From Minisyncoccota bacterium (lineage in GTDB: Bacteria; Patescibacteriota; Minisyncoccia; Phycocordibacterales; JAACPR01): a stretch of 64,000 nt of DNA. Position 1 is the first letter of the stretch; the number at the start of each line of letters is the position of its first letter. The notes under the pieces were generated by a model, which saw only the letters and a list, made by a program, of their open reading frames with translations, ran no database searches and was not told the DNA's origin. Below are positions 1,646 through 25,172 of this stretch, piece by piece. The stretch covers positions 169,401 to 233,400 of the forward strand of contig JBAYWG010000001.1 of assembly GCA_041674225.1 (NCBI GenBank). Direction: 5' to 3'. The translations under genes and the position numbers were made by a program.

Positions 1646-2929
1646 ATGAGCCATATCACAAAAAATAAACAATATGCTACGATACCAGCAATGAGCGCGG
1701 ATGTATGGGATGTAATAGTAATAGGTGGCGGACCAGCCGGAATGATGGCGGCGGGTCGTGCTGCAGAGCGAGGAAAAAAAGTCCTACTAATAGAGAAAAA
1801 TGATTCGCTTGGAAAAAAACTACTTATCACAGGAGGTGGTCGTTGTAATGTGACAAATGCAGAGCTCGACACCAGAAAATTATTATCAAAATTCAAAGAC
1901 GGAGGAAAATTTCTTTTTTCATCTTTTGCAGAATGGAATGTGCAAAATACTTTGGATTTTTTTCATACTAGAAATATGCCAACTAAAATTGAAAAAGAAT
2001 TGCGCGTCTTCCCTGTTTCCGACAAAGCACAATCAGTTTGGAATGTTTTAGTTGATTATATTAAAAAAAATAAAGTCACAATTCTTTCTGATTCCCCTGT
2101 TTCAGATTTTGTTTTAGAAGACGGAAAAATAGTTGGGGTGAAAGTGAAAAAAGATATTATCAAAGGTAAAAGTTTTATCCTGGCCACAGGAGGAACATCT
2201 AGACCGGAAACAGGTTCTACAGGTGACGGTTTCAAATGGCTTAAAAAAATTGGTCACACTGTAATAGAACCGGTTCCTTCTCTTGTGCCAATCGCCGCAA
2301 AAGATATTTGGATAAAAAGATTGTCTGGTGTGAGTCTGAATGACATAAAATTAACAGTCACACAAAACGGCGAGAAACAAAGTGTTCAAAAAGGAAGAAT
2401 TCTTTTTACTCATGTCGGCATTAGTGGACCAACAATTTTAAATATGTCCAAAGATATCGGTGAACTTCTGAAATATGGAGAGGTAAAAATTCTTTTGGAT
2501 CTTTTGCCAAATCATGATCACGCCAAATTAAATTCTACTCTTCAAGAAATTTTTAAAGAGAACGACAAAAAGAATTTCAAAAATTCCCTTTCAGGATTAA
2601 TTCCTTCTGCAATGATTCCAATAATTACTGAACTTTCAAAAATAGATCCGGATATCAAATGCAACAGCATCACTCGAGAATCACGAATGAAATTGATTGA
2701 ACTTCTAAAAAATATTCCACTAAATGTGCATAAATTACTTGGGGTTGATAAAGCAATTATTTCAAGCGGTGGAGTTTTACTCGACGAAGTAGATTTCAAA
2801 ACAATGTCATCGAGAATTTACCCGAATCTATTTTTAATTGGAGACATTCTAAACATCGACAGACCGAGTGGTGGCTATAGTTTGCAGTTGTGTTGGACAA
2901 CGGGTTTTGTCGCTGGGAATTCTATTTAA
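1646..2929 (+). CDS. HI0933-family FAD-dependent flavoprotein (NAD(FAD)-utilizing dehydrogenase / aminoacetone-oxidase family)
   Basis: N-terminal DVIVIGGGPAGMMAAGRAAERGKKVLLIEKN dinucleotide-binding motif followed by LLITGGGRCNVTN, and GDGFKWL later. These are typical HI0933-like features. The true start may be the internal Met at ~1691 (MSADVWDVIVIGGG). Confidence 0.8.
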   Translation: MSHITKNKQYATIPAMSADVWDVIVIGGGPAGMMAAGRAAERGKKVLLIEKNDSLGKKLLITGGGRCNVTNAELDTRKLLSKFKDGGKFLFSSFAEWNVQNTLDFFHTRNMPTKIEKELRVFPVSDKAQSVWNVLVDYIKKNKVTILSDSPVSDFVLEDGKIVGVKVKKDIIKGKSFILATGGTSRPETGSTGDGFKWLKKIGHTVIEPVPSLVPIAAKDIWIKRLSGVSLNDIKLTVTQNGEKQSVQKGRILFTHVGISGPTILNMSKDIGELLKYGEVKILLDLLPNHDHAKLNSTLQEIFKENDKKNFKNSLSGLIPSAMIPIITELSKIDPDIKCNSITRESRMKLIELLKNIPLNVHKLLGVDKAIISSGGVLLDEVDFKTMSSRIYPNLFLIGDILNIDRPSGGYSLQLCWTTGFVAGNSI

Positions 2930-2961
2930 TAAAGAAAACTCACACGAATGTGAGGGTGACT

Positions 2962-3213
2962 TTAGCGCAAAAAATCTTGCACTAAAACCAAAAGATCTGA
3001 TTCGACTTTTTCAGGATTACTTGCGCAACGCAAAATTTCCCCAAGTGAAACGATAGCGACAGCCTGACCTTCCGACCAGACTTTCATAACTGCCTTGCCT
3101 TTCGAATCAAGGATATTGTATCCGCCGCCTTCTCCACCTTTCCACGAATGGTCGGTGGCAGACAGAATGCATTCCACCAACTCTAAATGTTCCAATTGAT
3201 TTTTAGTTCTCAT
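2962..3213 (-). CDS. Hypothetical small protein (83 aa)
   Basis: ORF co-directional with and downstream of the hydrolase gene. It competes with a 62-aa plus-strand ORF (2868..3056). No recognisable motifs. Confidence 0.3.
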   Translation of the reverse strand: MRTKNQLEHLELVECILSATDHSWKGGEGGGYNILDSKGKAVMKVWSEGQAVAIVSLGEILRCASNPEKVESDLLVLVQDFLR

Positions 3214-3253
3214 TTAAAACCAACCTACAACAAAATTTACAGAAAGTGAATAG

Positions 3254-3811
3254 CTATATATTTTTCACAAACATTTTTTCTAACTCCTCCAAAACTTCAG
3301 GAAGTTTTTTCCAACCAGCAGATCCATTCAAGTGAACTCCGTTCGGGATAATAATAGGTTCTTTGTCTAATTTGTCTCCAAGTTTATAAGCATTTTCTAC
3401 AACAACCAAAGTGTCATTATCTCCATGAATTATCGACACGTCTTTTAGATTTGATTTTATAATTTCAAAATCAAAGTCTTTATAAAAATTTTCAGTAAGC
3501 GGGTTATTTGATTTTTCAAATCTACCTGCAACCAGAACTGCTCCCGGAAAACTTTTATCAGAATTTTGCAGATAATTTAAAATAGCAGCAACACCTAAAC
3601 TATGCCCAACAAAATATATTTCATCATTTTTATTTAAACCCACATGTCTAGAAATTTCATTAACCCACTCTGAACATATCGGAGCCTCTGGATTTGGCAT
3701 AGCCAAAGAACAGGCGTATACATCTTTTAATTTTAATTCCCCCATAAGCCAAGGAATCCAACTACTGTTTGGGCAACTATTAAAACCATGAATTATAAAT
3801 ACTTTTTTCAT
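3254..3811 (-). CDS. Alpha/beta-hydrolase, YdeN/RBBP9-like serine hydrolase
   Basis: MKKVFIIHGFNSCPNSSW...YFVGHSLGVAAIL nucleophile elbow (GHSLG). Size ~185 aa, typical of the YdeN/serine-hydrolase family. Confidence 0.7.
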   Translation of the reverse strand: MKKVFIIHGFNSCPNSSWIPWLMGELKLKDVYACSLAMPNPEAPICSEWVNEISRHVGLNKNDEIYFVGHSLGVAAILNYLQNSDKSFPGAVLVAGRFEKSNNPLTENFYKDFDFEIIKSNLKDVSIIHGDNDTLVVVENAYKLGDKLDKEPIIIPNGVHLNGSAGWKKLPEVLEELEKMFVKNI

Positions 3812-3872
3812 AAAAATAGTTTAACACAAACAAAAAAAGCCTTGAAACAAGACCCCTTTTGTTTTTTATAAA

Positions 3873-4013
3873 TTACTTTCCGTTAAGAGCCTTTTTTCGA
3901 GCTGCTGGTTTTAATGCTTTGATTCTTAGCATTTCCTTCTTTTTTGCAATTCGTGTTGGGCCTCTCTTAATAAAGCTTGTCTTTGCTTTGATTGATCCTG
4001 ATCTTTTTGCCAT
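3873..4013 (-). CDS. Small highly basic protein (46 aa, MAKRSGSIKAKTSFIKRGPTRIAKKKEMLRIKALKPAARKKALNGK), ribosomal-protein-like composition
   Basis: Translated by hand from the minus strand. Below the 60-aa cut-off of the ORF track. Sits in an otherwise empty 250-nt gap. Product identity unknown. Confidence 0.3.
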   Translation of the reverse strand: MAKRSGSIKAKTSFIKRGPTRIAKKKEMLRIKALKPAARKKALNGK

Positions 4014-4059
4014 AGGTAAATGAGTATATATTAAATTTAATTAAAATGCCACAGCGGGT

Positions 4060-4605
4060 TTAATTACGAACTTTTTCAGGAGACAAGAAAGTGAGTGCCA
4101 TTTCAATCCCTCTCATTTCACCCTTTAAACCTAGAGCAGTTTTTTGAGTCTCTTCGAATGTGTCTAAAGAACCTCCCGCTGGCACATTTTCTTTACCACC
4201 ATAACTTTCAATTTGAGCTTCTCTGTTGTAACGAACATCCGGTGCAGCAATAAGTCTTTCCTGCATTTTTATAATAGAAGCATACAAATTATTCAAACCA
4301 GCACCGCCTCCTGTTTGCTCAAACAATTCAAAAATTGATTTTACATTCACTTCAAATGCAGATAATTTTTTAAGCAATTCCGCAAACGCTTTTCTATGTA
4401 TCATATCGCTATAGACATTTCCATCAGTATAATTATGCGGACTCGTCATCTCAAACTGATGCAAAGCCGGCGCCACTTCTTTTTCAAATTCTTTTGTTAT
4501 TCCTTCCAAAACTTCAATTCTTTCGTTCAAGCTCTCAAATGACTCAGCCTTTGCTGGCTCTAATTCTTGTGGTAATTGATCTCTGCCAAATTTAAAGTTT
4601 TCCAT
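4060..4605 (-). CDS. Hypothetical protein (181 aa)
   Basis: Clean ORF in a co-directional gene string. No motifs recognised. Confidence 0.5.
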   Translation of the reverse strand: MENFKFGRDQLPQELEPAKAESFESLNERIEVLEGITKEFEKEVAPALHQFEMTSPHNYTDGNVYSDMIHRKAFAELLKKLSAFEVNVKSIFELFEQTGGGAGLNNLYASIIKMQERLIAAPDVRYNREAQIESYGGKENVPAGGSLDTFEETQKTALGLKGEMRGIEMALTFLSPEKVRN

Positions 4606-7433: not shown

Positions 7434-8294
7434 ATGCAAATAAAACGCCTTCTAAAAATAAGCCGACCGAGATTTTGGATTTATGAAATAGGTCCTTATA
7501 TTGTAGGAATTGCAGCAGCAGCGGGTATAACACTGAACGCGTGGCTTTTAATCCCCGCGATCATATTTTTCTTTTTTTTCACATATCCAGCAAATATTTT
7601 TATCTACGGAATTAATGACATTTTTGATTACGAAACAGATAAATTAAATCCAAAAAAAATATCCTACGAATCTCTTGTAATGCCGGAAGAGTGGCCAAAG
7701 CTTTGGAAAAATATTATTTTGTTTTGTGCGCCTTTTTTAGTCTATGGATTTTTTGTTTTAAATATTCAAAGCTTCATCGCGCTTCTGGCTTTCTTTTTCT
7801 TTGCGGGATTTTATTCATCTACACCGATCCGTGCAAAAGCTCGTCCTTTTTTAGACAGTATTTTTAGTGCAGGACATTATGTTGCTACAGCCGTGTTTTC
7901 ATATTTGATGATTAATTATTTTTTAAATCAAGAAATTACTTGGGTTAATCTCGCGATTGGCACACTTGCAGGAATGTTTTGGGCTATAGCTATGCATGCA
8001 TATTCCGCAGTTCCGGATATTCAAGCAGACAGAGATGCAAAACTAGAAACCATTGCTACAAAGTTAGAAAAAAATAAAACAATAATTTTATGCTCAGTTC
8101 TTTATGCACTTTCTGGAATTCTTGCTTTCAAATTTTTAGGGATAGTCAGCATTATCCTTTCACTTGTTTATGTTGTATTTATGATCAAATCAATCAAAAC
8201 AACAGACGAACAACTTTTCAAAATTTATACTTATTTCCCAAAAATAAATTCTCTTTCAGGAATGATTATTTTCTTTTCAGTTTTACTTAATTAG
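7434..8294 (+). CDS. UbiA-family aromatic/polyprenyl prenyltransferase (membrane). Given its neighbours, a candidate lycopene elongase or carotenoid/prenyl-lipid prenyltransferase
   Basis: NDIFDYETDKLNPKK (NDxxDxxxD motif) and multiple TM helices. Convergent with crtI. Confidence 0.7.
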   Translation: MQIKRLLKISRPRFWIYEIGPYIVGIAAAAGITLNAWLLIPAIIFFFFFTYPANIFIYGINDIFDYETDKLNPKKISYESLVMPEEWPKLWKNIILFCAPFLVYGFFVLNIQSFIALLAFFFFAGFYSSTPIRAKARPFLDSIFSAGHYVATAVFSYLMINYFLNQEITWVNLAIGTLAGMFWAIAMHAYSAVPDIQADRDAKLETIATKLEKNKTIILCSVLYALSGILAFKFLGIVSIILSLVYVVFMIKSIKTTDEQLFKIYTYFPKINSLSGMIIFFSVLLN

Positions 8295-9796
8295 ATTTCT
8301 TTTAGTGGTTCTGCGTCTTGTATATTTTCTAATCTTTTATAAACCAACTCTGCAGAAATTAAACAAATAGGCATACCGATTCCTGGATTTGTACCGGCAC
8401 CCACATAATAAAGATTCTTAACCTTCTTGCTAACATTATTCGGTCGAAAAATTGCAGTCTGACTCAATGAGTGTGCAAAACCTAGTGCAGTACCTTTAAA
8501 TGCATTGTAGTCCTTGATGAAGTCTTTTACAGAATAAAGCTTTTTATACACAATTCTATTTTTGAAATCTGGAATATCCATATTTTCTGCCATTTGATTT
8601 ATTACAAACTCAGAATATTCTTCTAGTGATTCATCAGTGTGATCTAAACCAGAAGCAATTGGCACAAGTACAAACAAATTTTCTTTATCAGCTGGCGCTA
8701 CATTTGCATCAGTTTTTGATGGACAACAAACATACAGAGAAGGATCTGTTGGCCATGTAGGTTTTTTAAATATTTGTGAAAAGTTTTCTTCCCAATTTTC
8801 AGCAAACAAAAGATTGTGGTGTTGCAGAGACGGAATTTTTCCTTCTACTCCCATGTACATAATAAATGCAGATGGTGCAAGCAATCGTGATTCCCAATAT
8901 TTTTTACTTTTCTCCCGGTGTGGCTCATCCAAAAGATGCATATCTGTGTGAGCAGTATCTGCATTTGAAATCACAATATCAGCTCGAAATTCTTGTCCGT
9001 TTTCCAATCTCACTCCCACAGCAGTTTTATTTTCAACAATAATTTTATTTACAGGACTGTTTAACAAAATCTCAACTCCGTGTTTTTTGGCAATAGTTTC
9101 CAACGCTTCTATGATTTTATAAATACCTCCTTCTGGATACCAAATTCCCTCCACAAAATCTACATAATTCATCATGCTATAAATCCCCGGCGCATCTCCA
9201 GGAGAAGTTCCAAGCAAAACAGTTTGATATTGCATTACTTTTCTCAGAATTTCGCTTTTGAATTTTTTCTCGATGATAGACTTCACACTTGAGAAGAGCG
9301 GGAGTTTTCTTCCTTCTTTCATTACTCTTTTGTTGAAGAAGTCAAAAATAGTATCGTAGTTTTTAAACATGAATTCATTTTTTGCGATTTCATATTGATA
9401 CTTTGTACTATCCATATATTTTCTCAAAACATCACCAGAACCCGGCTCCAAACTTTCAAAAGTTTCGATTGTTTTTTCTAAATCAGAATAAAAATCATAA
9501 TGTTTCTTTTCGCTTTTTAGAAAAATCCGGTACGAAGGAGAAAGTCTTTTTAATTTTAAATATTGAGTAATATCTTCACCCATCAATTTAAAAAAGTGCT
9601 CAAAAATATCTGGCATCATGTACCAAGACGGCCCCATATCAAAAACAAAACCATCTTCGGAATAGATTCTGGCTCTACCGCCGACTTGATCATTTTTTTC
9701 AATCATCTTCACCTTGTATCCCTTTTTAGCCAACATACAAGCCGTAGAAAGGCCTCCGATACCTGTTCCTATTATGATTACTTCTTTTTGACTCAT
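8291..9796 (-). CDS. crtI: Phytoene desaturase / CrtI-family FAD-dependent carotenoid desaturase
   Basis: VIIIGTGIGGLSTACMLAKKGYKVKMIEKNDQVGGRA FAD-binding N-terminus and length ~500 aa typical of CrtI. 4-nt overlap with crtB. Confidence 0.85.
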   Translation of the reverse strand: MSQKEVIIIGTGIGGLSTACMLAKKGYKVKMIEKNDQVGGRARIYSEDGFVFDMGPSWYMMPDIFEHFFKLMGEDITQYLKLKRLSPSYRIFLKSEKKHYDFYSDLEKTIETFESLEPGSGDVLRKYMDSTKYQYEIAKNEFMFKNYDTIFDFFNKRVMKEGRKLPLFSSVKSIIEKKFKSEILRKVMQYQTVLLGTSPGDAPGIYSMMNYVDFVEGIWYPEGGIYKIIEALETIAKKHGVEILLNSPVNKIIVENKTAVGVRLENGQEFRADIVISNADTAHTDMHLLDEPHREKSKKYWESRLLAPSAFIMYMGVEGKIPSLQHHNLLFAENWEENFSQIFKKPTWPTDPSLYVCCPSKTDANVAPADKENLFVLVPIASGLDHTDESLEEYSEFVINQMAENMDIPDFKNRIVYKKLYSVKDFIKDYNAFKGTALGFAHSLSQTAIFRPNNVSKKVKNLYYVGAGTNPGIGMPICLISAELVYKRLENIQDAEPLKEI

Positions 9797-10701
9797 GATT
9801 TTTTAATTAATGTTAAAAACGCTAACTTAAGTTTTTCTCCAAAACTTAAATGAACTCTGCCAGCGAAAATGTCGTATTTTACAACCTCTATCTTAACAAT
9901 AATTTTTGAATATAAAACTCGTGCTACTTTTATCGCTTTCGCCTCTCTTTTAGGCAACATTTGCAATCCGATATCAGCTTTTTTATAAAGATCTTCAGTT
10001 CTAGCAATTTCAAATTTCATCAAATCAATAAAATTTTGATTTATATTTTTATTAACTAAATCATCTTTTGTCACCCCAAACTTTTGCATTTCATCTTGTG
10101 GAAGATAAACTCTATCTCTTTGTATTACATCTTCATAAATATCGCGCAAAAAATTTGTCATTTGAAATGCTTCGCCAAGCGCTTTTGCATGATCTAGAAT
10201 TTTATTTCTATAATCTAAATCTGTAACAAATCTTTTATCTTTTGAACAAACTATATAAACCATCATATAACCCACTACTACAGCCGAACCATACATATAG
10301 TCTTCCAATTCTTTATAATTTTGATACTCAGTTTTTGAAGTATCTTGAATCATAGCCGAAATAAAATCTTCACTATATTCAAAAGAAATTTTGTATGTGT
10401 CAAAAACATATTTTGTGGCACGTAAAACTTTTAATTCATCTCCTTCGGCAAAATATTCTTCACCGCGATAACACTTACCCCACACCTCCTTCCACTCATT
10501 TAATTTTTCTAAAGCTAAATCTTTTTGATCTTTATATGTAGTATCTATATATTCATCTGGTAAACGAAAAAATGCATACAAAACACAGATCGCATCACGA
10601 TACTCCGCACCCATTAACAAAGTTCCAAAATAAAAACTCTTCCCATATTCTCGATGAACTCCTCTGCAAAACTCTAAATCTAAATTATATTCTGGGTACA
10701 T
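9793..10701 (-). CDS. crtB: Phytoene synthase (squalene/phytoene synthase family)
   Basis: YGKSFYFGTLLMGAEYRDAICVLYAFFRLPDEYID and YMYGSAVVVGYMM (YxYxVAGxVG) motifs. Confidence 0.85.
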   Translation of the reverse strand: MYPEYNLDLEFCRGVHREYGKSFYFGTLLMGAEYRDAICVLYAFFRLPDEYIDTTYKDQKDLALEKLNEWKEVWGKCYRGEEYFAEGDELKVLRATKYVFDTYKISFEYSEDFISAMIQDTSKTEYQNYKELEDYMYGSAVVVGYMMVYIVCSKDKRFVTDLDYRNKILDHAKALGEAFQMTNFLRDIYEDVIQRDRVYLPQDEMQKFGVTKDDLVNKNINQNFIDLMKFEIARTEDLYKKADIGLQMLPKREAKAIKVARVLYSKIIVKIEVVKYDIFAGRVHLSFGEKLKLAFLTLIKKS

Positions 10702-11804
10702 TAAGATTTTCTCTTATCAAGCAATATCACAAAATCAAACCACACGTCTTTGATCATTGGTTTAAGATTTGATTTCAAAATTATTTTGTTGGCTTTATCT
10801 AATTGAGAATGAATTTCCTTTTCAGCATAATCAATTGCGCCTGTTTCTTGAAAAAGTTTTTGCAATACAAGTACTGAATATTCATCAATTTCTTTTCCAA
10901 AAAGTGCTAAGAATATATTTCTATCATTTTCTTTGGCGTTTTCAAAAATATATTGCGTCAAAATTGTGTGTTGACCGTCTTGCACATCCAGCAACCTTTT
11001 CTTTCCTGTTTTTTTAGGATCTCCCACAATATCCAAAAGGTCGTCTTGTATTTGAAAAGCCTGACCCAAGCACAACCCCAATTCCTTATAAAAATCTTTG
11101 TTAATATTTTTTCCAGTCAAATTTGCACCGATCAACATTGGATTAACAAAAGAATAAAAGGCTGTTTTGTATTCATTTTTAAGAAAAATATCTTTCATCT
11201 CTACTTCGTACTGAAGCATAAAAGATACATCTAGTATTTGTCCTGCGACCACTTCCTCAATCATTCTAAAAAATATTTGCTGTACTTTTTTATTATTCAA
11301 ACTAGAAATAACTTCATGCGACCAACTAAAAATTAAATCTCCCGCCAAAATAGCAATGGATTCTGCAATGTGTTTTTTATCGCCTCGAGGATACGATGAA
11401 ATAAATTTTTCTAAATAAACATGCGTCGTGTCTTTGGAATGTCTTTCTACACCTTTATCAATAATATCATCATGAATCAAAGCAAACGCATGAAATAATT
11501 CTAAAGCAATTCCAGCTCGCAAAACTTCTTCTTGGTTCACACCACCTTCTGTAGAGTACGCCAAAAAAGCCATATATGGACGAACTCTTTTTCCACCTTC
11601 ACGTACCAAAGACACAGCATAGTCCACTGCTTCCAAACTTAATTTATTATCAGAAAAGTTTTTATAGTTTAAAACTTTGTCATCCAAATACTCATTTAAA
11701 CGAATATTAAAAATATCTTGAAAAGATTTCAGATCATACGCTTTTACAACAGGAATAAAGTTGATTTTTTCTAAGTGAAGGAAAGAAAGAATGTTTTTAA
11801 TCAT
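10701..11804 (-). CDS. Polyprenyl diphosphate synthase (GGPP/FPP synthase-type trans-prenyltransferase)
   Basis: First DDxxD (LIHDDIIDKG) and second DDxxD (FQIQDDLLDIVGDPKKTGKK) aspartate-rich motifs. Confidence 0.85.
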   Translation of the reverse strand: MIKNILSFLHLEKINFIPVVKAYDLKSFQDIFNIRLNEYLDDKVLNYKNFSDNKLSLEAVDYAVSLVREGGKRVRPYMAFLAYSTEGGVNQEEVLRAGIALELFHAFALIHDDIIDKGVERHSKDTTHVYLEKFISSYPRGDKKHIAESIAILAGDLIFSWSHEVISSLNNKKVQQIFFRMIEEVVAGQILDVSFMLQYEVEMKDIFLKNEYKTAFYSFVNPMLIGANLTGKNINKDFYKELGLCLGQAFQIQDDLLDIVGDPKKTGKKRLLDVQDGQHTILTQYIFENAKENDRNIFLALFGKEIDEYSVLVLQKLFQETGAIDYAEKEIHSQLDKANKIILKSNLKPMIKDVWFDFVILLDKRKS

Positions 11805-16080: not shown

Positions 16081-16120
16081 TAATAAAAGAAAAAGCCGGT
16101 TCGAGATGAGTCGAACCGGC
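16081..16120 (-). terminator. Rho-independent terminator for the minus-strand Ubl/E1/JAB unit (10-bp perfect stem gccggttcga/tcgaaccggc followed by a T-run on the minus strand)
   Basis: Read directly from the sequence. The T-tract is present only in the minus orientation. Confidence 0.65.
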
Positions 16121-16151
16121 TAAGTAAGTTAAGCCTGTTTGTTGGTAAGGC

Positions 16152-16520
16152 TTAGTTACCGCGAATCTTTGAAAAGATCAACACCTGTGCTCCTTCTTCG
16201 AGCACCTCCTCAAAATTGGAGATTGTCTGTCCGTTCAAACGAACCTCTCCTTCAATTTTGTCTCGATAACCGGCAATTACCAGCGCCTGTCTGATTGTGG
16301 TTCCAGAGTCCACCTCGAAAGGTTTGATCTGTCCACCGGGGAAAGCACCGACTTTCACGTTGATTTTCTCAACTTGTGCCGGAGTCTCCTTTTTGGAAGT
16401 TGCTTTCTTTGCAGCGGGTTTCTTGGTGGTTGCTTTCTTTGTGGTTCCTTTTTTCATGGTTCTTTTCTTTTGGTTTGTTTGTTGTTTACAGATTTTTTTA
16501 ACTGAACGACGAACCCACAA
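16152..16520 (-). CDS. Ubiquitin-like beta-grasp (ThiS/MoaD-like) protein with a Lys/Thr/Ala-rich histone-H1-like N-terminal tail. The C-terminus ...IFSKIRGN is not Gly-Gly
   Basis: The C-terminal ~75 aa (INVKVGAFPGG...EVRLNGQTISNFEEVLEEGAQVLIFSKIRGN) follow the ThiS/MoaD pattern. The N-terminal tail is MKKGTTKKATTKKPAAKKATSKKETPAQ. The gene overlaps the 3' end of the E1 gene by 23 nt; an alternative start is at 16457 (MKKGTTKK). Confidence 0.6.
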   Translation of the reverse strand: MWVRRSVKKICKQQTNQKKRTMKKGTTKKATTKKPAAKKATSKKETPAQVEKINVKVGAFPGGQIKPFEVDSGTTIRQALVIAGYRDKIEGEVRLNGQTISNFEEVLEEGAQVLIFSKIRGN

Positions 16521-17205
16521 TCATCATGGGTTGAAGTGAGAATATCAATTCATGCTCGAACTCATCGGTCGGTTCTTTACCTTCCTTAAGTTTCTGCATT
16601 TTCTGATACCATCGGATGAATTGCCACACAGCAAATCCCGAGACCATTTCTGCCGTCGGACCTACTGTGATAGTTGCTCCGCAAGCGGAGACTTCAGCAA
16701 CGTCATCACCATACAGAGTTTTTTCCCATCCCGAAACTTCTACGGGACTTGATGGATTCACTGTATAGATACGACCACTATTGGAACCCATACGAGTCTC
16801 AATAATAACCTCAACGTGAGGTCTGTAACGAAGTGATCCTTTCCAGATTTCTTGTCGTGAAGACATTGTATCTGTCAGCAGGAAAACAATCTGACCGAGA
16901 CGTTGTGTTCCATCAACTCGTTCATTGTGCACCGAAACTTCGGTACCTGTCTGCACGAGAATAATATCTTTCAACGCCTCAACCTTGAGTTGTCCATTGT
17001 GATTGTTACCGAATATTTGGTTTGGGACGTTGTGGGGTTCCACTACATCCGGATCCCAAATGTGAATGTTACGGATACCGAGCTTCGCCAACGAAAGGGC
17101 GATTCTAGATCCTGTAGCACCCACACCTATGATATCGATACGTCTATCACCAAATTCTTGCGGTGAAAACACATCAAGGTGTCTTATTACGTCTAGTTCT
17201 GGCAT
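16498..17205 (-). CDS. Minimal E1-like ubiquitin-activating/ThiF-MoeB family adenylyltransferase (235 aa, no rhodanese or zinc-ribbon domain)
   Basis: IDIIGVGATGSRIALSLAKLGIRNIHIWDPDVVEPHNVPNQIFG combines the GxGxxG P-loop and the DxDxVExxN...Q motif of the ThiF/MoeB/E1 superfamily. Confidence 0.8.
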   Translation of the reverse strand: MPELDVIRHLDVFSPQEFGDRRIDIIGVGATGSRIALSLAKLGIRNIHIWDPDVVEPHNVPNQIFGNNHNGQLKVEALKDIILVQTGTEVSVHNERVDGTQRLGQIVFLLTDTMSSRQEIWKGSLRYRPHVEVIIETRMGSNSGRIYTVNPSSPVEVSGWEKTLYGDDVAEVSACGATITVGPTAEMVSGFAVWQFIRWYQKMQKLKEGKEPTDEFEHELIFSLQPMMIVGSSFS

Positions 17206-17237: not shown

Positions 17238-18023
17238 TTAACGAAACCTTTTCCGGAAAAACCGGGGTTTATATTTTCCTCCAAAACCCTTGAAAAAGGG
17301 TGGTGAATACGGAGCGAACCGCAAAGCAGTAACTTTCCGTTTCATTTCCTCCCGAAGATCATTACGAATTTCATCCAGTTTGTCCCAGTCATCTATGTCT
17401 TCTTCTGTCCATTTCCATGGAACAGAATGAAAAGCGAAACCCTTCTCCCAGTCATAAATTCCGAAATTGATATCTCCTTGACGATTTAAGATACCGCGCA
17501 AGAAAAAATCAGTACCGAAACTTTGAAAGATTTTCATCTGATCATTATCTTGACCAGATGGGTAAGTTCCACCATTTCCATGTGAATGTCCCCAGAAGCG
17601 TATGTTGTTGAAGATTTCGTCACCACCTTCTTTCGAAAGGATTTCCATGACAAATTCTTGAAGAGCTTCTGGAAGAATTTCAGTATGGCCACCGCTCACA
17701 GTCTGAGGAAAGAGGAACACGTCATCGATGATGAAGTCTTCTCCTAGTCGCCGAGCAGTTCCAAGCCACCCCACTTCAATATTGATTGCACCTACAATAA
17801 CGTACATCTTGAAGAGGGCCAATGGACTGACAAATACAGTCGGAATATGGTGTTTCAACGTCAGAACTTCCAGAGTTGTATGGAAAACATCCGACGGAGC
17901 AAAAAATTGTCCGTCTGTCTCTGCGAATTCCCATTGGTAAGGCTGCGGAGGGGTTGGAGTATATGGGCGAGGAGCACCAACAATTTTTGCTGGCAGAGGG
18001 AGTTTAGTATTGTTTTTTTTCAT
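17238..18023 (-). CDS. JAB/JAMM (MPN+) metalloprotease-domain protein with a ~120-aa N-terminal extension
   Basis: Exact JAMM signature WGHSHGNGGTYPSGQD (HxHx7Sx2D) with an upstream acidic residue. 32 nt upstream of the E1 gene. Confidence 0.8.
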   Translation of the reverse strand: MKKNNTKLPLPAKIVGAPRPYTPTPPQPYQWEFAETDGQFFAPSDVFHTTLEVLTLKHHIPTVFVSPLALFKMYVIVGAINIEVGWLGTARRLGEDFIIDDVFLFPQTVSGGHTEILPEALQEFVMEILSKEGGDEIFNNIRFWGHSHGNGGTYPSGQDNDQMKIFQSFGTDFFLRGILNRQGDINFGIYDWEKGFAFHSVPWKWTEEDIDDWDKLDEIRNDLREEMKRKVTALRFAPYSPPFFKGFGGKYKPRFFRKRFR

Positions 18024-18112
18024 TTAGATTCGATTGTGAAGGTTCTTTTTATACTACTTCTGTAATTCTTTTATTATATTTTAAGGGTTTTGTCAATACC
18101 CCACCCCTTTTT

Positions 18113-18152
18113 ATCTAATATAAAAAACCGCTCTCAGAAACTCTGAGAGCGG
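18113..18152 (-). terminator. Rho-independent terminator downstream of the 543-aa gene (stem accgctctcag/ctgagagcggt, T-run on minus strand)
   Basis: Read directly from the sequence. Confidence 0.6.
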
Positions 18153-18167
18153 TTTGACTTAAAGCCA

Positions 18168-19799
18168 TTATTTGATAGCAAGACTGCCATCAAATTCCTT
18201 CAAGAATTCCAGGACCAGCTCGATTACTGTTTCCAGATCGAGTTCTCCAAGAAGTTCCGGCAATGTCGCATGAAGAGGACCTATGGGTAGCCCTCCATCC
18301 CACATTGGGTGCAAATGAGGAATATTAATATCCGGCTCCATTTCGTTACCGATCGGAGAAATACTAACTAATCCTTTCAACACGTTGCACAAAATACGAA
18401 ACGATCCGATGTTGTGAATTTTTTCGGTTGAAATGTCCCTGCTTTTGATAGATCTAGTATCAACAACGAAGACATCATCTCCCTTGAAAAAGACACCCGA
18501 GACTTCCGGCCAGGCACTCACCCTTTGGATACGTTCATTGAACAAATCAGTGGTCACAGCAGCAGGAACCTTTACAAGGTTTTGGATAAAAACGTTTTGC
18601 GCTATCATCATCTGATTGCGACGAATATTATTCATCAACTTTTTCAGTTCATTTTCCTTATCCTGCTTCTGTGCTGCTCGTTCATCTACGAACAGATTAC
18701 GGAAAGCCGAGATCACGACAGGATCTTTAAGCGGTGGCTTTTTTGGATAATCGATACTTTTATCAACAACAGGAAACTTCCTCAAAACAGTGAGGTAATC
18801 TCCGTAATGAATTTCGTTTATCGTTCCAATTGCTTTAATGGCAACAAGGATGGACGCTTCGAACTCATAATCCTTGAGTAAAGGAAGAATAACCTTTCCT
18901 TCCCCCATACAAAATTGATTCGTGTACCGATCCACATGAGGATGACCAAAAGTGTGTCTTTCATACTCAACTCGACGAGTGAGGTTTTTAAACACAGCAG
19001 GTGTTTCTTCACCACCTCCAAAGAGAAGCTTGATCTCAAATTGTCCAAATTCATGAAGAATTTTAGTTCCGGGATCAACAGCATACATGGTCTGTGTGGT
19101 GAAAATGATTCTTCTACCATCCACTCTAATGTTCTGAATCTCAGGAATATTCCAAAGAGTTTGAAGCACCTTATCAGCTTCTTCGTAAGCTTGCTGGTTG
19201 TCATCATTCTTTGATACCAAAGAAGAAGTCAAAACAATATCGTTTTGAATCAGCCGACGATTTTCTGTAAGCTGTTTTTGAAGATCAACATCTTTCTTGG
19301 ACTTAGGAATTTTGAATTTCCCATTCTTGATTTGAACAAGACTAGGCAAATCTCCCCTGATGAGATTCATTGCTTCTGTAAGAATGTGTTTATACACATC
19401 CACGTTCGGCTTATTACAGCAATTGTTAGAAGCATCGTAAAGCAAATACAGATTATTTTTTCCAACGAGTTCTGCAACAGCATAATTGCTTTCAGGATCC
19501 ACAATAACAATCCCTCTACCAGAAGGTTGATATAGAGTACGATTACATGTACGAACTCTTTGTTTCCACAACTCGTCTGGAAGCGTCAATTCGACCTTAT
19601 CACCATCAGCAGTACCGAAGACGTTAAGAAAAAATGTAGTTGAAAAACGACGTACATCTCTTTGTCTTCCTTGACAGTTGTACAGTTGAATTTCATTGAA
19701 CCCCAATATTTCCAATGCATCACCCAAAACATCTCGGGTAGCTGATTCAAAAGAATCCGCAACACGAAAATCCCAATTTGTTTTTTCTATTCTTATCAT
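18168..19799 (-). CDS. Large hypothetical protein (543 aa) with a central UBC-like E2 active-site signature (ERHTFGHPHVDRYTNQFCMGEG; compare canonical HPN[IV]x3-4GxIC) flanked by uncharacterised N- and C-terminal regions
   Basis: Same strand and GC regime as the Ubl/E1/JAB genes. The E2-like call is motif-level only. Confidence 0.45.
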   Translation of the reverse strand: MIRIEKTNWDFRVADSFESATRDVLGDALEILGFNEIQLYNCQGRQRDVRRFSTTFFLNVFGTADGDKVELTLPDELWKQRVRTCNRTLYQPSGRGIVIVDPESNYAVAELVGKNNLYLLYDASNNCCNKPNVDVYKHILTEAMNLIRGDLPSLVQIKNGKFKIPKSKKDVDLQKQLTENRRLIQNDIVLTSSLVSKNDDNQQAYEEADKVLQTLWNIPEIQNIRVDGRRIIFTTQTMYAVDPGTKILHEFGQFEIKLLFGGGEETPAVFKNLTRRVEYERHTFGHPHVDRYTNQFCMGEGKVILPLLKDYEFEASILVAIKAIGTINEIHYGDYLTVLRKFPVVDKSIDYPKKPPLKDPVVISAFRNLFVDERAAQKQDKENELKKLMNNIRRNQMMIAQNVFIQNLVKVPAAVTTDLFNERIQRVSAWPEVSGVFFKGDDVFVVDTRSIKSRDISTEKIHNIGSFRILCNVLKGLVSISPIGNEMEPDINIPHLHPMWDGGLPIGPLHATLPELLGELDLETVIELVLEFLKEFDGSLAIK

Positions 19800-19865
19800 T
19801 TTGTACTAGGTATAATTTTAAAACAACTTCTGGCAGAAGAATATAACACAAATCAAGACATGTCA

Positions 19866-19906
19866 ATTATTAAAATAAAAAGCCGCCACCCAACCAGGGT
19901 GGCGGC
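19866..19906 (-). terminator. Rho-independent terminator downstream of the FAD-oxidoreductase gene (10-bp stem gccgccaccc/gggtggcggc, T-run on minus strand)
   Basis: Read directly from the sequence. Confidence 0.65.
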
Positions 19907-19913
19907 ATACACA

Positions 19914-21467
19914 TCAGCGAGCGAGCTGATATTCCGCGCTTCTCATAACAACACCAAACAAAACATCTCCAATCCGATGAAGCATGCCAGGAATGACGAT
20001 GGCATTCGGGTTGTGAGGAGTTTCCAACACAGACCCAAAGCCGTAATAACCAGACAAAATCCGCTTCTTAGGATCAGGACTGTGTTTGACGATAAACTCT
20101 CCATCGTAATCAAACAAAGGACACTTATCTACAGGATCGTAGGTGCAGCCCATGCTTTTCATAACTTCCGGCGAATTACCATACCCAATGAGTGTCATGA
20201 TCTTCCCAAAGGGAATTTTTTCAACCTCAGAGTGCTCTTTACGAAAGACGTAGACTTCCTTTCCAGCAACTTCCCAACGATTGACTCCATAAAGAATTTT
20301 TCCATTGTGAAGCGCACGGTAGTAATCACTACGACTTCTCGCAAGATCTCCCTGAAAATCAACCAGATTAGGAAGGGATACATCCCGAAATAATCTGCGT
20401 GCAACTCCATCAACGACAACAGTCGTGTTTGGATTATAAACACATTCTTCAGGGTAGTGAGTAAGAACACGATAGTCCACAGCCGCACCTCGATCAATCA
20501 GATTATGAATCTGAAAAAGCATCTCTGCCGTTGAATTACCGAGTCCGACGAGGATAATTCTCTTACCCTCAACTTCATCGCGATCAATAACCTTCTGCCA
20601 ACGTGAACCGGCTTGGGCAGTGGTCGCTTCAGTAGTCATGCGACTTGGATCAGAAAGCGGTTTTGGTTTACCGAGACCAATCGTATTAATAACGATTGGA
20701 AAAGTTTCTTTTTTTCCATTAGCGAAATGAAGCACGTGCTTCAACTTACCAGGAACAATCTTGACCACCGTCTCCTTTTTAGAACGGTAAGCTAGATTAT
20801 CTAGGAACCGGCGAACTTCTTCACCATCTCCAGGTGCAGGCCGCAAGATTCTATCAAAGAATTGTAGCTGACGTGGATTATTCCTAGACAGTCCAAAGAC
20901 ATTGTTCTGACTCCAGATACCCAGCGGCTTAGACTTCTCATATATGGTAATGTTATTAAAACCAAGTTGTCTGAGCGCGTAAGTGATAAGAATCCCCGCA
21001 GCCCCATAACCGACAACGGCAATTGGAACTCGAGACAAGGAATTTGGAATAGTAGATTGGCTGACAAAAAAAGTTGCCGCACCCTCTCCTAAAAACTGTT
21101 CCGGACTCCGAAGACCGCTATTGGCAAGAGCCAAATCGATACGACGATTCTGCAAATGTTCACCTCGATATTCAGGAAGATTATCTTCACTGTCGATAAA
21201 AGGAAGTGCTTGGGCATAACCATTAAGAACTCCTCCAACATCACCGACTCGAAGAACCAATTCAGAAAAAAGGTTACCCCAACGTCCTGTGTTTGACATT
21301 TCTTGGACAGCATCAAGACTGAATCCTTTCTCGTCAATCCATCTTCTCAGAACACCCAGCGAAACCTTTTTCATAAAAGAATCTCCTAGGGTCTTGAGCT
21401 TTTCACAAGCAGTCACTAAGTCACGAGGAGTTCTTTTTGAACTCATTCTTTTTGAAGCGGTATTCAT
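19914..21467 (-). CDS. FAD/NAD(P)-binding oxidoreductase with two dinucleotide-binding motifs (flavin monooxygenase / pyridine-nucleotide-disulfide-oxidoreductase-like) and a ~150-aa N-terminal extension
   Basis: VPIAVVGYGAAGILITYALRQLGFNNITIYEKSKPLG (GxGxxG) and RIILVGLGNSTAEMLFQIHNL (GxGxxA) Rossmann motifs. Confidence 0.7.
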   Translation of the reverse strand: MNTASKRMSSKRTPRDLVTACEKLKTLGDSFMKKVSLGVLRRWIDEKGFSLDAVQEMSNTGRWGNLFSELVLRVGDVGGVLNGYAQALPFIDSEDNLPEYRGEHLQNRRIDLALANSGLRSPEQFLGEGAATFFVSQSTIPNSLSRVPIAVVGYGAAGILITYALRQLGFNNITIYEKSKPLGIWSQNNVFGLSRNNPRQLQFFDRILRPAPGDGEEVRRFLDNLAYRSKKETVVKIVPGKLKHVLHFANGKKETFPIVINTIGLGKPKPLSDPSRMTTEATTAQAGSRWQKVIDRDEVEGKRIILVGLGNSTAEMLFQIHNLIDRGAAVDYRVLTHYPEECVYNPNTTVVVDGVARRLFRDVSLPNLVDFQGDLARSRSDYYRALHNGKILYGVNRWEVAGKEVYVFRKEHSEVEKIPFGKIMTLIGYGNSPEVMKSMGCTYDPVDKCPLFDYDGEFIVKHSPDPKKRILSGYYGFGSVLETPHNPNAIVIPGMLHRIGDVLFGVVMRSAEYQLAR

Positions 21468-23540: not shown

Positions 23541-25172
23541 CTATTTCTTTTTTGCCACTCTCACAAACTCTGTAAAAAGTGGATGAGGAGAAAGAGGTCG
23601 TGCCTTAAACTCTGGATGAAATTGTGTTCCTAGCATAAACGGATGAGATTTTTTTGAAAGTTCTGCAATTTCCATCAATCTTTTATCTTTTGAAGTTCCA
23701 GAAAAAATCAATCCAGAATCTTCGAGTTGAGCAATATATTCTGGATTCACTTCATATCGATGACGATGTCTTTCTGAAATTAACGATTTCCCATACGCTT
23801 TTTCTGCAATTGTTCCCTTTCTCAAAAAACACGGATATTCACCAAGTCTCATTGTGCCACCAAATTCCCCTCTCGCAATTTTTTCTTTTTGATCTGGCAT
23901 CATATCTATCACACAATTTTTTCCATCAGGATTTATTTCTGCAGTCTGAGCATCTTTGATTCCCAAGACATTTCGCGCGTATTCAATTGTCATCAATTGC
24001 ATTCCATAACAAAGTCCTAGATACGGAATTTTATTTTCTCGCACAAATTTTATCGCAGCCATTTTCCCTTCGATACCAGTTTCTCCAAAACCTCCAGGCA
24101 CAATCACTCCATCAAAATCAGCCAGTTCTTTTACAAGCTTCGGATTGTCATCGTATTTTTTAGAATTTATCCAAGTCAATTCCGCTTTTACACCTTCATA
24201 ATATGAAGAATATTTTATCGCTTCAATCACTGACAAATACGAATCCGACAAAACAAAATCCCCAGTATCAAAATATTTTCCAACCACAGCAATCTTCAAA
24301 GCTTTCTTTGTATTTTTTGTTTTTGAAACAAACTTTTTCCAATCAGTTAAATTCGCTTTCGGATTTTTCAAATTCAACTCTTCCGCAATCATTTCTCCAA
24401 TTTTGTCTTTTTCAAAATTAATTGGAACATCATAAATACTTTCAATATCGGGCGCTGAGATTACATTTTCTTTTTGCACATTACACTGAATTGCTAGCTT
24501 TTCTTTTCTTCTTGCATCAAGCGGAACAGAGCTTCTGGCGATAATAAAATCTGCTTGAATCCCGTAAGAGTTCAATTGTCGAATCGCATTTTGAGTTGGC
24601 TTTGTTTTCATTTCTCCCAAAGTTTGTGGAATCGGCAGATAACTCACCATAATAAATAAAACATCTTTCGGATTTTTTAATTTCAAAACACGCGCCGCTT
24701 CCATGAACATAATGTTTTGATAATCCCCAATCGTCCCTCCAATTTCTACAATAGTTACATCTGATTTATTTAATACTCCAGACTTTTCATATCGCCGTAG
24801 TATTTCATCTCTAATATGCGGAATCGCCTCTACACAATTTCCTCCATACTTTCCTTGTCGTTCACGATCGATAACATGTTTATAAACCATTCCAGAAGTT
24901 AGATAATCCGCTGTCGACAAATCGCGATTTAAAAATCTTTCATAATTCCCCATGTCCTGATCTGTTTCTAAACCAGAGTTCATCACAAAAGTTTCTCCGT
25001 GCTCTTTTGGATTCATCGTACCTGCGTCCACATTCAAATAAGGATCAACTTTCATCAAGTTGACCTTATTTCCCATAGATTGAAGTATAGTACCAATAGA
25101 GGCGGTGCTTATACCTTTGCCGACTCCTGACATCACTCCTCCTACGACAAAAATATATTTGTGGCCTTTCAT
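23541..25172 (-). CDS. pyrG: CTP synthase
   Basis: MKGHKYIFVVGGVMSGVGKGISTASIG N-terminus and GLCYGMQ glutamine-amidotransferase triad region. 543 aa. Confidence 0.9.
   Translation of the reverse strand: MKGHKYIFVVGGVMSGVGKGISTASIGTILQSMGNKVNLMKVDPYLNVDAGTMNPKEHGETFVMNSGLETDQDMGNYERFLNRDLSTADYLTSGMVYKHVIDRERQGKYGGNCVEAIPHIRDEILRRYEKSGVLNKSDVTIVEIGGTIGDYQNIMFMEAARVLKLKNPKDVLFIMVSYLPIPQTLGEMKTKPTQNAIRQLNSYGIQADFIIARSSVPLDARRKEKLAIQCNVQKENVISAPDIESIYDVPINFEKDKIGEMIAEELNLKNPKANLTDWKKFVSKTKNTKKALKIAVVGKYFDTGDFVLSDSYLSVIEAIKYSSYYEGVKAELTWINSKKYDDNPKLVKELADFDGVIVPGGFGETGIEGKMAAIKFVRENKIPYLGLCYGMQLMTIEYARNVLGIKDAQTAEINPDGKNCVIDMMPDQKEKIARGEFGGTMRLGEYPCFLRKGTIAEKAYGKSLISERHRHRYEVNPEYIAQLEDSGLIFSGTSKDKRLMEIAELSKKSHPFMLGTQFHPEFKARPLSPHPLFTEFVRVAKKK

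Follow-up and report, generated by a model that had tools for sequence, protein, structure and literature searches.

In a 64-kb stretch of contig JBAYWG010000001.1 from a Minisyncoccota bacterium (the whole stretch analyzed, hereafter the window), we identified a minus-strand gene (18168..19799) for a 543-amino-acid multidomain protein that is probably the E2-type conjugating enzyme of a four-gene system for tagging with a ubiquitin-like protein (Ubl), the other three genes encoding a JAB-type metalloprotease, a minimal E1 and the Ubl. The gene was defined by open reading frame (ORF) listing and translation from an ATG start, and was characterized through an AlphaFold model and relatives found with HMMER. 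Its product carries, in order, an N-terminal alpha/beta domain, a long helix, a UBC-like domain bearing a cysteine, a second long helix and a UBC-like domain lacking that cysteine. We assign the central domain to the E2s because its fold, the order of its elements, the spacing of its motif and the identity of its matches agree, each sequence score being weak alone. The genes apparently constitute an undescribed variant of the bacterial E1/E2/JAB/Ubl tagging systems, notable for its apparent size, its hosts in the candidate phyla radiation (CPR), its minimal E1 and its fused E2/pseudo-E2.

The central UBC-like domain and its active-site loop

The 543-residue product is identical to WC087_01005, a hypothetical protein from a Candidatus Paceibacterota metagenome-assembled genome at NCBI. 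An earlier note, made from the letters alone, had picked out a UBC-like motif in this ORF and read it as that of an E2. The ORF listing and translation bear out the motif, and translation, column conservation and E2 alignment together define an active-site loop, HPHVDRYTNQFCMG, at residues 286–299 (18903..18944, minus strand), with the candidate catalytic Cys297 encoded by 18909..18911. Among the window's open frames of 100 amino acids or more, 25,209 residues in total, HP[HN]-x(5-10)-C has a single match, here, but conservation carries more weight as evidence than this one motif match.

Predicted structure and profile comparison place the central UBC-like (E2-type) domain at residues 204–345 (18765..19190, minus strand). 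The AlphaFold model of the whole protein, built from 21 sequences (predicted local distance difference test, pLDDT, 85.5), consists of an alpha/beta region (residues 1–165), a long helix, a beta-meander with helices (221–339), further helices (360–428) and another beta-meander with helices (433–534). DSSP run on this model resolves two long helical linkers, both encoded on the minus strand. The first (residues 170–216, 19152..19292; helices at 170–198 and 204–216) contributes its last turns as alpha-1 of the UBC-like domain, with residue 208 onward aligned by HHalign on helix 1 of UBE2D2; the second (residues 360–428, 18516..18722) comprises helices at 360–410 and 413–428. Modeled alone from 45 diverse sequences, residues 203–345 reached a pLDDT of 91.8 and a predicted template modeling score of 0.85, and the predicted structure shows the N-terminal helix, antiparallel beta-meander, active-site loop and C-terminal helices of the UBC fold.

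A structural comparison of this kind had been proposed in the earlier note, and E2s are indeed among the matches. The central domain scored highest against UBE2S (7.4, with 111 residues aligned at 18% identity), followed by Ubc13, UbcH7 and the Knl1 RWD domain (6.7 each), Spc24/25 (6.3–6.5), a CBASS (antiphage signaling system based on cyclic oligonucleotides) E2 (8hsb_B, 5.4), FANCL (5.3–5.5), BubB (5.3) and the UEV domains of Mms2 and Tsg101 (5.2). The whole-protein model led to the same E2 matches.

Profile alignments place the cysteine consistently. Compared by HHalign with five human E2s, the central-domain alignment matched over 80 columns (E 1.2e-4, probability 55.6%), setting H286-P287-H288 on H75-P76-N77 of UBE2D2 and C297 on its catalytic cysteine, C85, and aligning the first helices with each other and the segment hEIGxFxI with YxGGxFxL. 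Searched with hmmsearch against 177,635 PDB sequences, the family profile gave 12 weak matches (E 0.56–1.9), 11 of them E2s; in the UbcH7 alignment, 'aPHVdeegkaCl' lies over 'HPNIDEKGQVCL' and runs through the catalytic cysteine. C297 thus occupies the position at which catalytic E2s carry a conserved cysteine, in a loop about eight residues past the HPN and before helix 2, and the consensus of the wider family, aPHVxxxGxxClGN, has the same spacing as the E2 motif HPNIxxxGxICL. Fold, profile alignments and conservation support the conclusion that the 543-residue protein contains a central E2-type domain with a cysteine at the E2 catalytic position, as the earlier note had proposed.

The loop is conserved well beyond close relatives. 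Among 21 full-length relatives (25–36% identity), H286 and C297 are invariant and P287 and H288 nearly so. Across the wider family, where columns were counted over about 145 domain matches from distant relatives, C297 is kept in 139/143, G252 in 148/148, N272 in 147/147, P287 in 146/147, H288 in 144/147 and G299 in 141/145, with T274 and R275 at 131/147 each. The first histidine behaves differently: its column holds His in 38 of 147 domains and Ala in 105, so that the family-wide motif becomes [A/H]-P-H-[V/I]-x(4-8)-C-x-G-[N/E]. The conservation check that the earlier note had named thus favors the E2 reading, Cys297 and the P-H pair being essentially invariant in the family, although H286 is conserved only in the full-length subfamily. 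One member, P0022, is the only one with the canonical HPN (HHPNINDNGWC; HHPNINDNGWCAG).

Flanking domains and partner genes

The regions on either side of the central domain, which the earlier note had left unassigned, proved to hold recognizable modules. Residues 417–538 (18186..18551, minus strand), identified by HHalign and translation, match the central-domain profile with a probability of 99.6% (E 4.9e-24, 119 columns), and Pro505 stands at the position of the cysteine, the motif columns reading I-P-H-P-G instead of H-P-H-C-G. From that match and that substitution we conclude that this region is a degenerate, Cys-less duplicate of the central domain, a pseudo-E2 resembling UEV and RWD domains. 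In one of the related loci described below (L003), dead and active domains are encoded by two adjacent genes, a 408-residue Cys-less paralogue (APAVHASGIAFIGN) preceding a 452-residue active protein (NAPHVNEKGAGCLGN).

The N-terminal alpha/beta domain (residues 1–165, 19305..19799, minus strand) carries the motif PSGxG…VAELxGxxLY (written out with its spacing, PSG-G...P....VAEL.G..LY) and was detected in 150 of 151 representatives. In P0023, P0024 and P0025 (777–1072 amino acids) it is repeated three to five times ahead of a single Cys-bearing UBC-like domain, with up to five copies in P0023 (L006 1982-5200). A probable function is that of a binding module. We considered a glutamine amidotransferase nucleophile elbow for this domain and dropped it, as PSGxG in the model precedes a strand rather than lying between strand and helix. 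Overall, 119 of the 151 representatives combine the N-terminal domain with one Cys-bearing domain, and 23 combine a Cys-bearing with a dead domain (22 with a detected N-terminal domain, one without). The N-terminal domain is joined to two Cys-bearing domains in four (retention of the cysteine in both domains is seen, e.g., in P0061, P0064 and P0090), and to a dead domain only in five. It is plausible that the flanks supply recognition functions, now narrowed to a dead UBC-like domain and a repeatable module.

An exhaustive HMMER search with a two-sequence profile recovered 696 representatives (clustered at 50% identity) with an E of 1e-3 or lower, 267 of them reaching 1e-10 or lower. The full architecture is found in about 21; most others, of 350–1100 amino acids, match only profile positions about 60–345. 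Word-indexed searches recovered far less: the protein itself and one relative (P0002, 34% identity) with the single sequence, and one protein with the 45-domain profile. A related-locus search of genome contigs with the single protein gave no match. Neither the 543-residue protein nor its family is covered by a model in Pfam, NCBIfam, PADLOC or PHROGs, Pfam scans of ten whole relatives at E up to 0.01 gave no match, phmmer of the whole protein against PDB sequences returned only a chance match to arginine kinase, and our literature search found no description of the E2-like family. Every member with an organism name belongs to the Patescibacteria/CPR (Paceibacterota, Kaiserbacteria, Parcubacteria group, Patescibacteria group), a taxonomy based on nine named members and the window protein. 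Several family loci have a GC content of 48–59%.

The gene lies in a conserved neighborhood. In the window the order of transcription, entirely on the minus strand, is a flavoprotein-like gene, the 543-residue gene, JAB, E1 and Ubl. Ten related loci (L001 to L010) were fetched, of which L008 is a near-copy of L007 and L002 ends at the gene. In all nine that extend past it (L001, L003–L010), JAB and ThiF homologues come after the E2-like gene, in that order; the Ubl is next in L001, L003–L007, L009 and L010, while L008 ends before that position. Genes abut or overlap in L003, L006 and L009; in the window and its close relatives an intergenic region lies between them. An opposite-strand DUF6008 gene stands between the E2-like and JAB genes in L004 and L005. 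Such a DUF6008 membrane protein was seen beside or inside the cluster at L001 5535-6131, L004 8829-9395 and L005 4207-4773; the window has no DUF6008 gene.

The JAB/JAMM metalloprotease-like protein (261 amino acids; 17238..18023, minus strand) contains EVGWLG followed by HSH-x7-S-x2-D, a complete HxHx7Sx2D motif, and its match to Pfam Prok-JAB is weak, below threshold. Among PDB sequences it matches best the isopeptidases Rpn11 (E 1.7e-5) and CSN5, over a range of E 1.7e-5 to 1e-3. These eukaryotic proteins are nearer to it in sequence than any JAMM protein of bacterial or archaeal origin with a solved structure.

The E1-like adenylating enzyme (235 amino acids; 16498..17205, minus strand) is a single ThiF domain (residues 21–203; Pfam E 2.9e-17) with a GVGATGS nucleotide loop, and its orthologues are 227–250 amino acids long. 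An invariant Cys175, in SACG, is presumably the crossover-loop cysteine of ThiF, an equation that we draw from the span of the ThiF alignment. Searched against PDB, the E1 profile matched MccB, PaaA, ThiF, Uba5, MoeB, BubCD, Atg7 and Cap2.

The last gene of the four (translation 16152..16520, minus strand; likely ATG at 16457, giving 101 amino acids) encodes a small protein ending SKIRGN (16152..16172), and a terminator-like hairpin lies beside it at 16094..16121. We identify it as a beta-grasp Ubl because a profile of seven Ubl units matches SAMP2 (E 0.0046), PF1061, MoaD and ThiS. All nine Ubl units end in Gly-Asn, with Asn the last residue in seven: besides the window these include SKVRGN (L001 11430-11675 and L004 11101-11352), KKLRGN (L006 6747-7040), EKIAGN (L009 8906-9364), SQVRGN (L010 9368-9658) and SRVQGN in both units of a tandem di-Ubl (L003 9135-9677). 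Two units continue past Gly-Asn, namely the first unit of L003 and L007 (11426-12175), in which KPLAGN is followed by about 170 more residues; the tandem and extended precursors would therefore need proteolytic maturation. In the profile alignment the Ubl glycine falls on the penultimate Gly of SAMP2 (…SGG), placing Gly-Asn where Gly-Gly usually stands. BilA has up to nine residues beyond a conserved Gly, which a JAB enzyme removes (PMC10557695), and by analogy the JAB protein here probably removes whatever follows the Ubl glycine. An invariant Asn is not what would be expected of a mere cap, and it may be a P1' determinant or itself the reactive terminus. The window Ubl also has a Lys-rich, histone H1-like N-terminal tail (16370..16457; MKKGTTKKATTKKPAAKKATSKK) with weak HC2 and H1-like matches, and the corresponding tail in L006 is Arg-rich instead. 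Either self-conjugation, with the tail as acceptor, or nucleic-acid binding could be its role.

Between the window and L001/L004, identity is 69–70% for the E1, 53–54% for the flavoprotein, 43–46% for the JAB protein, 43–46% for the Ubl and 33–34% for the E2-like protein, which on these figures is the fastest-evolving component. The flavoprotein-like protein (517 amino acids; 19914..21467, minus strand) has weak Pfam matches to NAD_binding_8 and Pyr_redox_2 and no informative PDB or NCBIfam match. Its orthologues of about 510 amino acids (L001 6280-7818, L002 3-1349, L004 5273-6805, L005 651-2183) adjoin only the subfamily in which E2 and pseudo-E2 are fused, running parallel to the E2-like gene in the window and divergently elsewhere, and are absent from L003, L006, L007, L009 and L010. 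Its membership of the tagging system is uncertain; it may be a partner or a target.

In locus L010 (GCA_016307145.1), a tandem pair of full-length E2-like paralogues stands ahead of the JAB, E1 and Ubl genes. Directly upstream of the pair, at 2570-4060, is a gene for an Mpa/ARC-type proteasomal AAA ATPase (TIGR03689, E 8.9e-89, 298 bits, under the curated cut-off). The 64-kb window contains no Mpa-like AAA ATPase gene and no paralogue of the E2-like gene.

Proposed mechanism and competing explanations

Gene linkage, the motifs of the JAMM protein and the E1, the duplication inside the protein, the predicted fold and the cysteine with its conserved position are what the data show; in the route suggested here we infer the thioester chemistry, where the Ubl is processed, what the pseudo-E2 and N-terminal domains do, and which targets are tagged. 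The JAB protein would trim the Ubl precursor at Gly-Asn, and in relatives cut the tandem or extended precursors, exposing a reactive C-terminus. The 235-residue ThiF-type E1 would adenylate this C-terminus and probably load the Ubl onto Cys175, from which Cys297, in the central domain's HPH...C loop, may accept the Ubl in thioester linkage before passing it to amino groups of targets or of the Lys-rich tail of the Ubl itself. The Cys-less C-terminal domain could act as a built-in UEV/RWD-type partner that binds an acceptor Ubl or a substrate (cf. Mms2 for Ubc13). The N-terminal module and the two long helices may serve substrate recognition, oligomerization or both, making a separate E3 unneeded, and the JAB protein may also reverse conjugation. 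There is precedent in Bil, in which JAB removes the residues after the conserved Gly and the E2 is proposed to recognize targets without an E3 (PMC10557695; PMC11601596). The surroundings, chromosomal and of housekeeping character, point toward a possible cellular role in regulation or proteostasis.

Several observations weigh against this proposal. At the level of sequence the scores are weak (HHalign probability 55.6%, hmmsearch E 0.56), and neither the 45 diverse central domains nor the whole 543-residue protein matched Pfam UQ_con, Prok-E2_A-E, RWD or UEV at E up to 10. Foldseek found no significant match for the whole-protein model. The structures are predictions. The His-Pro-Asn triad is missing: the window protein has H-P-H, the Asn position is His in 144 of 147 family domains, and the first His is Ala in most. 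The near-invariant polar residues H249/E250, N272, T274, R275 and E312 exceed what E2s usually conserve, which hints at additional or different chemistry. Among the partners, the E1 consists of the adenylation domain only, with neither a separate Cys domain nor a ubiquitin-fold domain for E2 recruitment, and the closest relatives of the Ubl are sulfur carriers, its end being Gly-Asn rather than Gly-Gly.

Known systems share parts of this arrangement. Bil (BilABCD, Types I and II; the 6D and 6C/CEHH operons of Iyer et al. 2006) is closest in gene content: besides an E1 and a JAB/JAMM peptidase, it has a Ubl and an E2 that each stand alone, the E2 with a conserved His near its catalytic Cys, and the same four genes are adjacent in the window and found together in L001, L003–L007, L009 and L010. 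Bil likewise has no E3 gene, the E2 being presumed to choose targets itself, and in its Ubl a conserved Gly is followed by extra residue(s) that JAB is expected to remove, a feature that the Ubl here may share (PMC10557695; PMC11601596); the multi-beta-grasp Ubls of L003 and L009 recall some BilA proteins. There are also differences. The E1 here is a 235-residue single ThiF domain, whereas BilD is a multidomain IAD-AAD-CYS protein, with an inactive and an active adenylation domain and a mobile Cys domain; the E2 is a 543-residue N-domain/coil/UBC/coil/pseudo-UBC protein with no Prok-E2, UQ_con or PADLOC match; an invariant Asn follows the conserved Gly in place of a variable tail; and the named hosts are Patescibacteria, with loci set among housekeeping genes.

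Canonical eukaryotic E2s (UBE2S, UBE2N, UBE2L3) share the order H-P-x, about eight residues, and Cys before helix 2, and the Ubc13-Mms2/Uev1a pair likewise joins an active UBC domain to a Cys-less UBC-like partner. Unlike these, the active and dead domains here are fused through a segment of about 70 residues (two helices), or encoded by adjacent genes in L003; the HPN Asn is His; an N-terminal module is added; the partner E1 is minimal; and sequence similarity is not significant (E 0.56 or higher). The Bub (6E/DUF6527) and Type II CBASS (Cap2/Cap3) operons also bring together bacterial E1, E2 and JAB functions, and our E1 profile matches BubCD and Cap2; Cap2 family models match the E1 only over its Rossmann part (residues 16–107). 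Catalytically inactive E2/RWD-like domains occur in 6E operons (PMC1779556). The Bub E2 uses Ser and oxyester chemistry, in contrast to the Cys found here, and Bub has a DUF6527 serine protease and Ubl-E2 or E2-E1 fusions, whereas the genes here are separate and family-library scans found no DUF6527 match in the operon. Type II CBASS fuses E1 to E2 and conjugates the CD-NTase rather than a Ubl; here E1 and E2 are separate genes, and the same scans found no CD-NTase family among the neighbors in the window. None of the operon types 6a–6e of Iyer et al. 2006 has the present architecture (PMC1779556). Finally, the SAMP and ThiS-MoaD-CysO systems with JAMM proteases resemble ours in having a Ubl of the SAMP2, MoaD and ThiS kind, a single ThiF/MoeB-type E1 and a JAMM protease, but the known systems lack an E2 and their Ubls end in Gly-Gly, whereas a UBC-fold Cys protein is constant here and every Ubl unit ends in Gly-Asn.

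Likeness to Bil raises the question of defense, a role for which the rapid evolution of the E2-like component leaves room. The E2-like protein might recognize a phage structural protein and tag it with Ubl and so block assembly or infectivity, which we think unlikely. Every experimentally characterized operon of the bacterial E1/E2/JAB(/Ubl) kind (Type II CBASS, Bil) acts against phages, and the same is predicted for Bub (PMC11601596; PMC10557695). Between the same genomes the E2-like protein (33–34% identity) evolves much faster than the E1 (69–70%), paralogous E2-like genes stand in tandem in L010, and the number of N-terminal modules varies, as expected of a diversifying recognition component. 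The genomic setting argues otherwise: the neighbors in the window, L004, L006 and L010 are ddl, FtsEX, PyrG-like, RecR, RuvA/RuvX and ribosomal proteins rather than defense islands, and FtsX-PyrG synteny is kept between the window and L010, suggesting vertical inheritance. The E2-like and JAB proteins had no PADLOC or PHROG match, nor did the loci show CapW, CapH/CapP or a regulator resembling them.

That setting also invites a bolder extension of the tagging proposal, for which our confidence is lower still. Patescibacteria might carry a chromosomal, vertically inherited housekeeping Ubl-tagging pathway, independent of Pup, that feeds an unfoldase/protease or regulates proteins in these ultra-small bacteria, and whose components would be closer to eukaryotic ones than to those of known bacterial defense systems. 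Its basis is that the best structural matches of the UBC domain are eukaryotic E2s, that a UEV-like partner is fused or adjacent as in Ubc13-Mms2, that the JAB protein is Rpn11/CSN5-like, that poly-Ubl precursors occur, that a one-residue Asn cap follows the reactive Gly, and that an Mpa/ARC-type AAA ATPase adjoins the locus in at least one genome (L010).

The sulfur-carrier affinities of the Ubl suggest a different chemistry, which we hold to be improbable. The E1, Ubl and JAB protein would form a pathway of the ThiS/MoaD/CysO type, in which the Ubl is adenylated and thiocarboxylated, JAB trims the precursor or hydrolyzes an adduct (as Mec+ and QbsD do), and Cys297 carries a persulfide as in rhodanese, the sulfur ending in small-molecule or tRNA modification, possibly with the neighboring flavoprotein. 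Such a relay would accommodate SAMP2, MoaD and ThiS as the best sequence relatives of the Ubl, the ThiF/MoeB size of the E1 (whose top NCBIfam matches are ThiF models), the conserved flavoprotein neighbor in the window, L001, L002, L004 and L005, and the housekeeping surroundings. It sits poorly with a Ubl that ends in Gly-Asn instead of the Gly-Gly of sulfur carriers, with a JAB protein resembling the isopeptidases Rpn11 and CSN5, and with the presence in every locus examined of a UBC-fold protein with an E2-positioned Cys, which known sulfur-carrier systems lack. The flavoprotein is missing from half of the loci, and no cysteine desulfurase or rhodanese gene was seen in them.

We give least credence to both UBC-like domains being RWD/UEV-type modules that scaffold E1, JAB and Ubl, or to His288 and Cys297 forming, with H249, E250 and E312, a Cys-His hydrolase or metal site: the many invariant polar residues and the absent HPN Asn would suit such readings, but RWD and UEV domains have no Cys, whereas here one stands at the exact E2 position with E2-like spacing in 139 of 143 domains, the dead copies that lost it (Pro505 in the window) also lost the surrounding conservation, as expected for a catalytic residue, and the operon already has a dedicated peptidase in JAB.

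Bacterial Ubl conjugation was demonstrated only recently, in Type II CBASS, Bil and Bub, and these systems are sparsely distributed. Our data add a large family, the 696 representatives described above, whose named hosts are CPR bacteria with minimal genomes. Features not seen together before are joined here: an E1 of minimal, ThiF size paired with a true UBC-fold Cys protein, the fusion of an E2 with a dead copy of itself, an N-terminal domain that is modular and can be repeated, and a Ubl whose end is invariably Gly-Asn. An active cascade would mean that a single-domain E1 is able to serve an E2, a point relevant to the evolution of E1-E2 relays from sulfur-carrier systems, and the cluster would offer a compact, E3-free tagging system for biochemical study. 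Were the pathway a housekeeping one, it would provide a new data point on the prokaryotic roots of the ubiquitin system.

Transcription signals and other features of the window

The E2-like gene is bounded by candidate transcription signals. Directly 3' of it on the minus strand lies an intrinsic-terminator-like hairpin (about 18115..18155) with a 13-bp GC-rich stem and a U-tract; its fold of -25.1 kcal/mol over 63 nucleotides has a z of -5.6 against shuffles, confirming the intrinsic terminator that the earlier note had placed at 18113..18152. Upstream of the gene, a sigma-70-like promoter match on the minus strand (19838..19866; TTGACA, 17 nucleotides, TATTCT; 10/12) follows the terminator-like hairpin of the flavoprotein gene (19882..19906); the site is a consensus match only, and the region has just as many promoter-like sites as expected from shuffles. 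Past the E2-like terminator there is a perfect TTGACA (18089..18094, minus strand), from which the nearest TATAAT-like hexamer is only 12–14 nucleotides away, and the scan did not call it.

A second 543-residue ORF in the window (23541..25172) was considered as possible kin of the E2-like gene, an idea dropped since its translation reads as CTP synthase (PyrG) and the equal length is coincidental. Together with the nearby FtsE/FtsX, this gene is syntenic with L010. Elsewhere in the window (7434..11804), four consecutive ORFs read as prenyltransferase, phytoene desaturase, phytoene synthase and polyprenyl synthase, and by their translations would form a carotenoid-type cluster, unusual for a reduced Paceibacterota genome.

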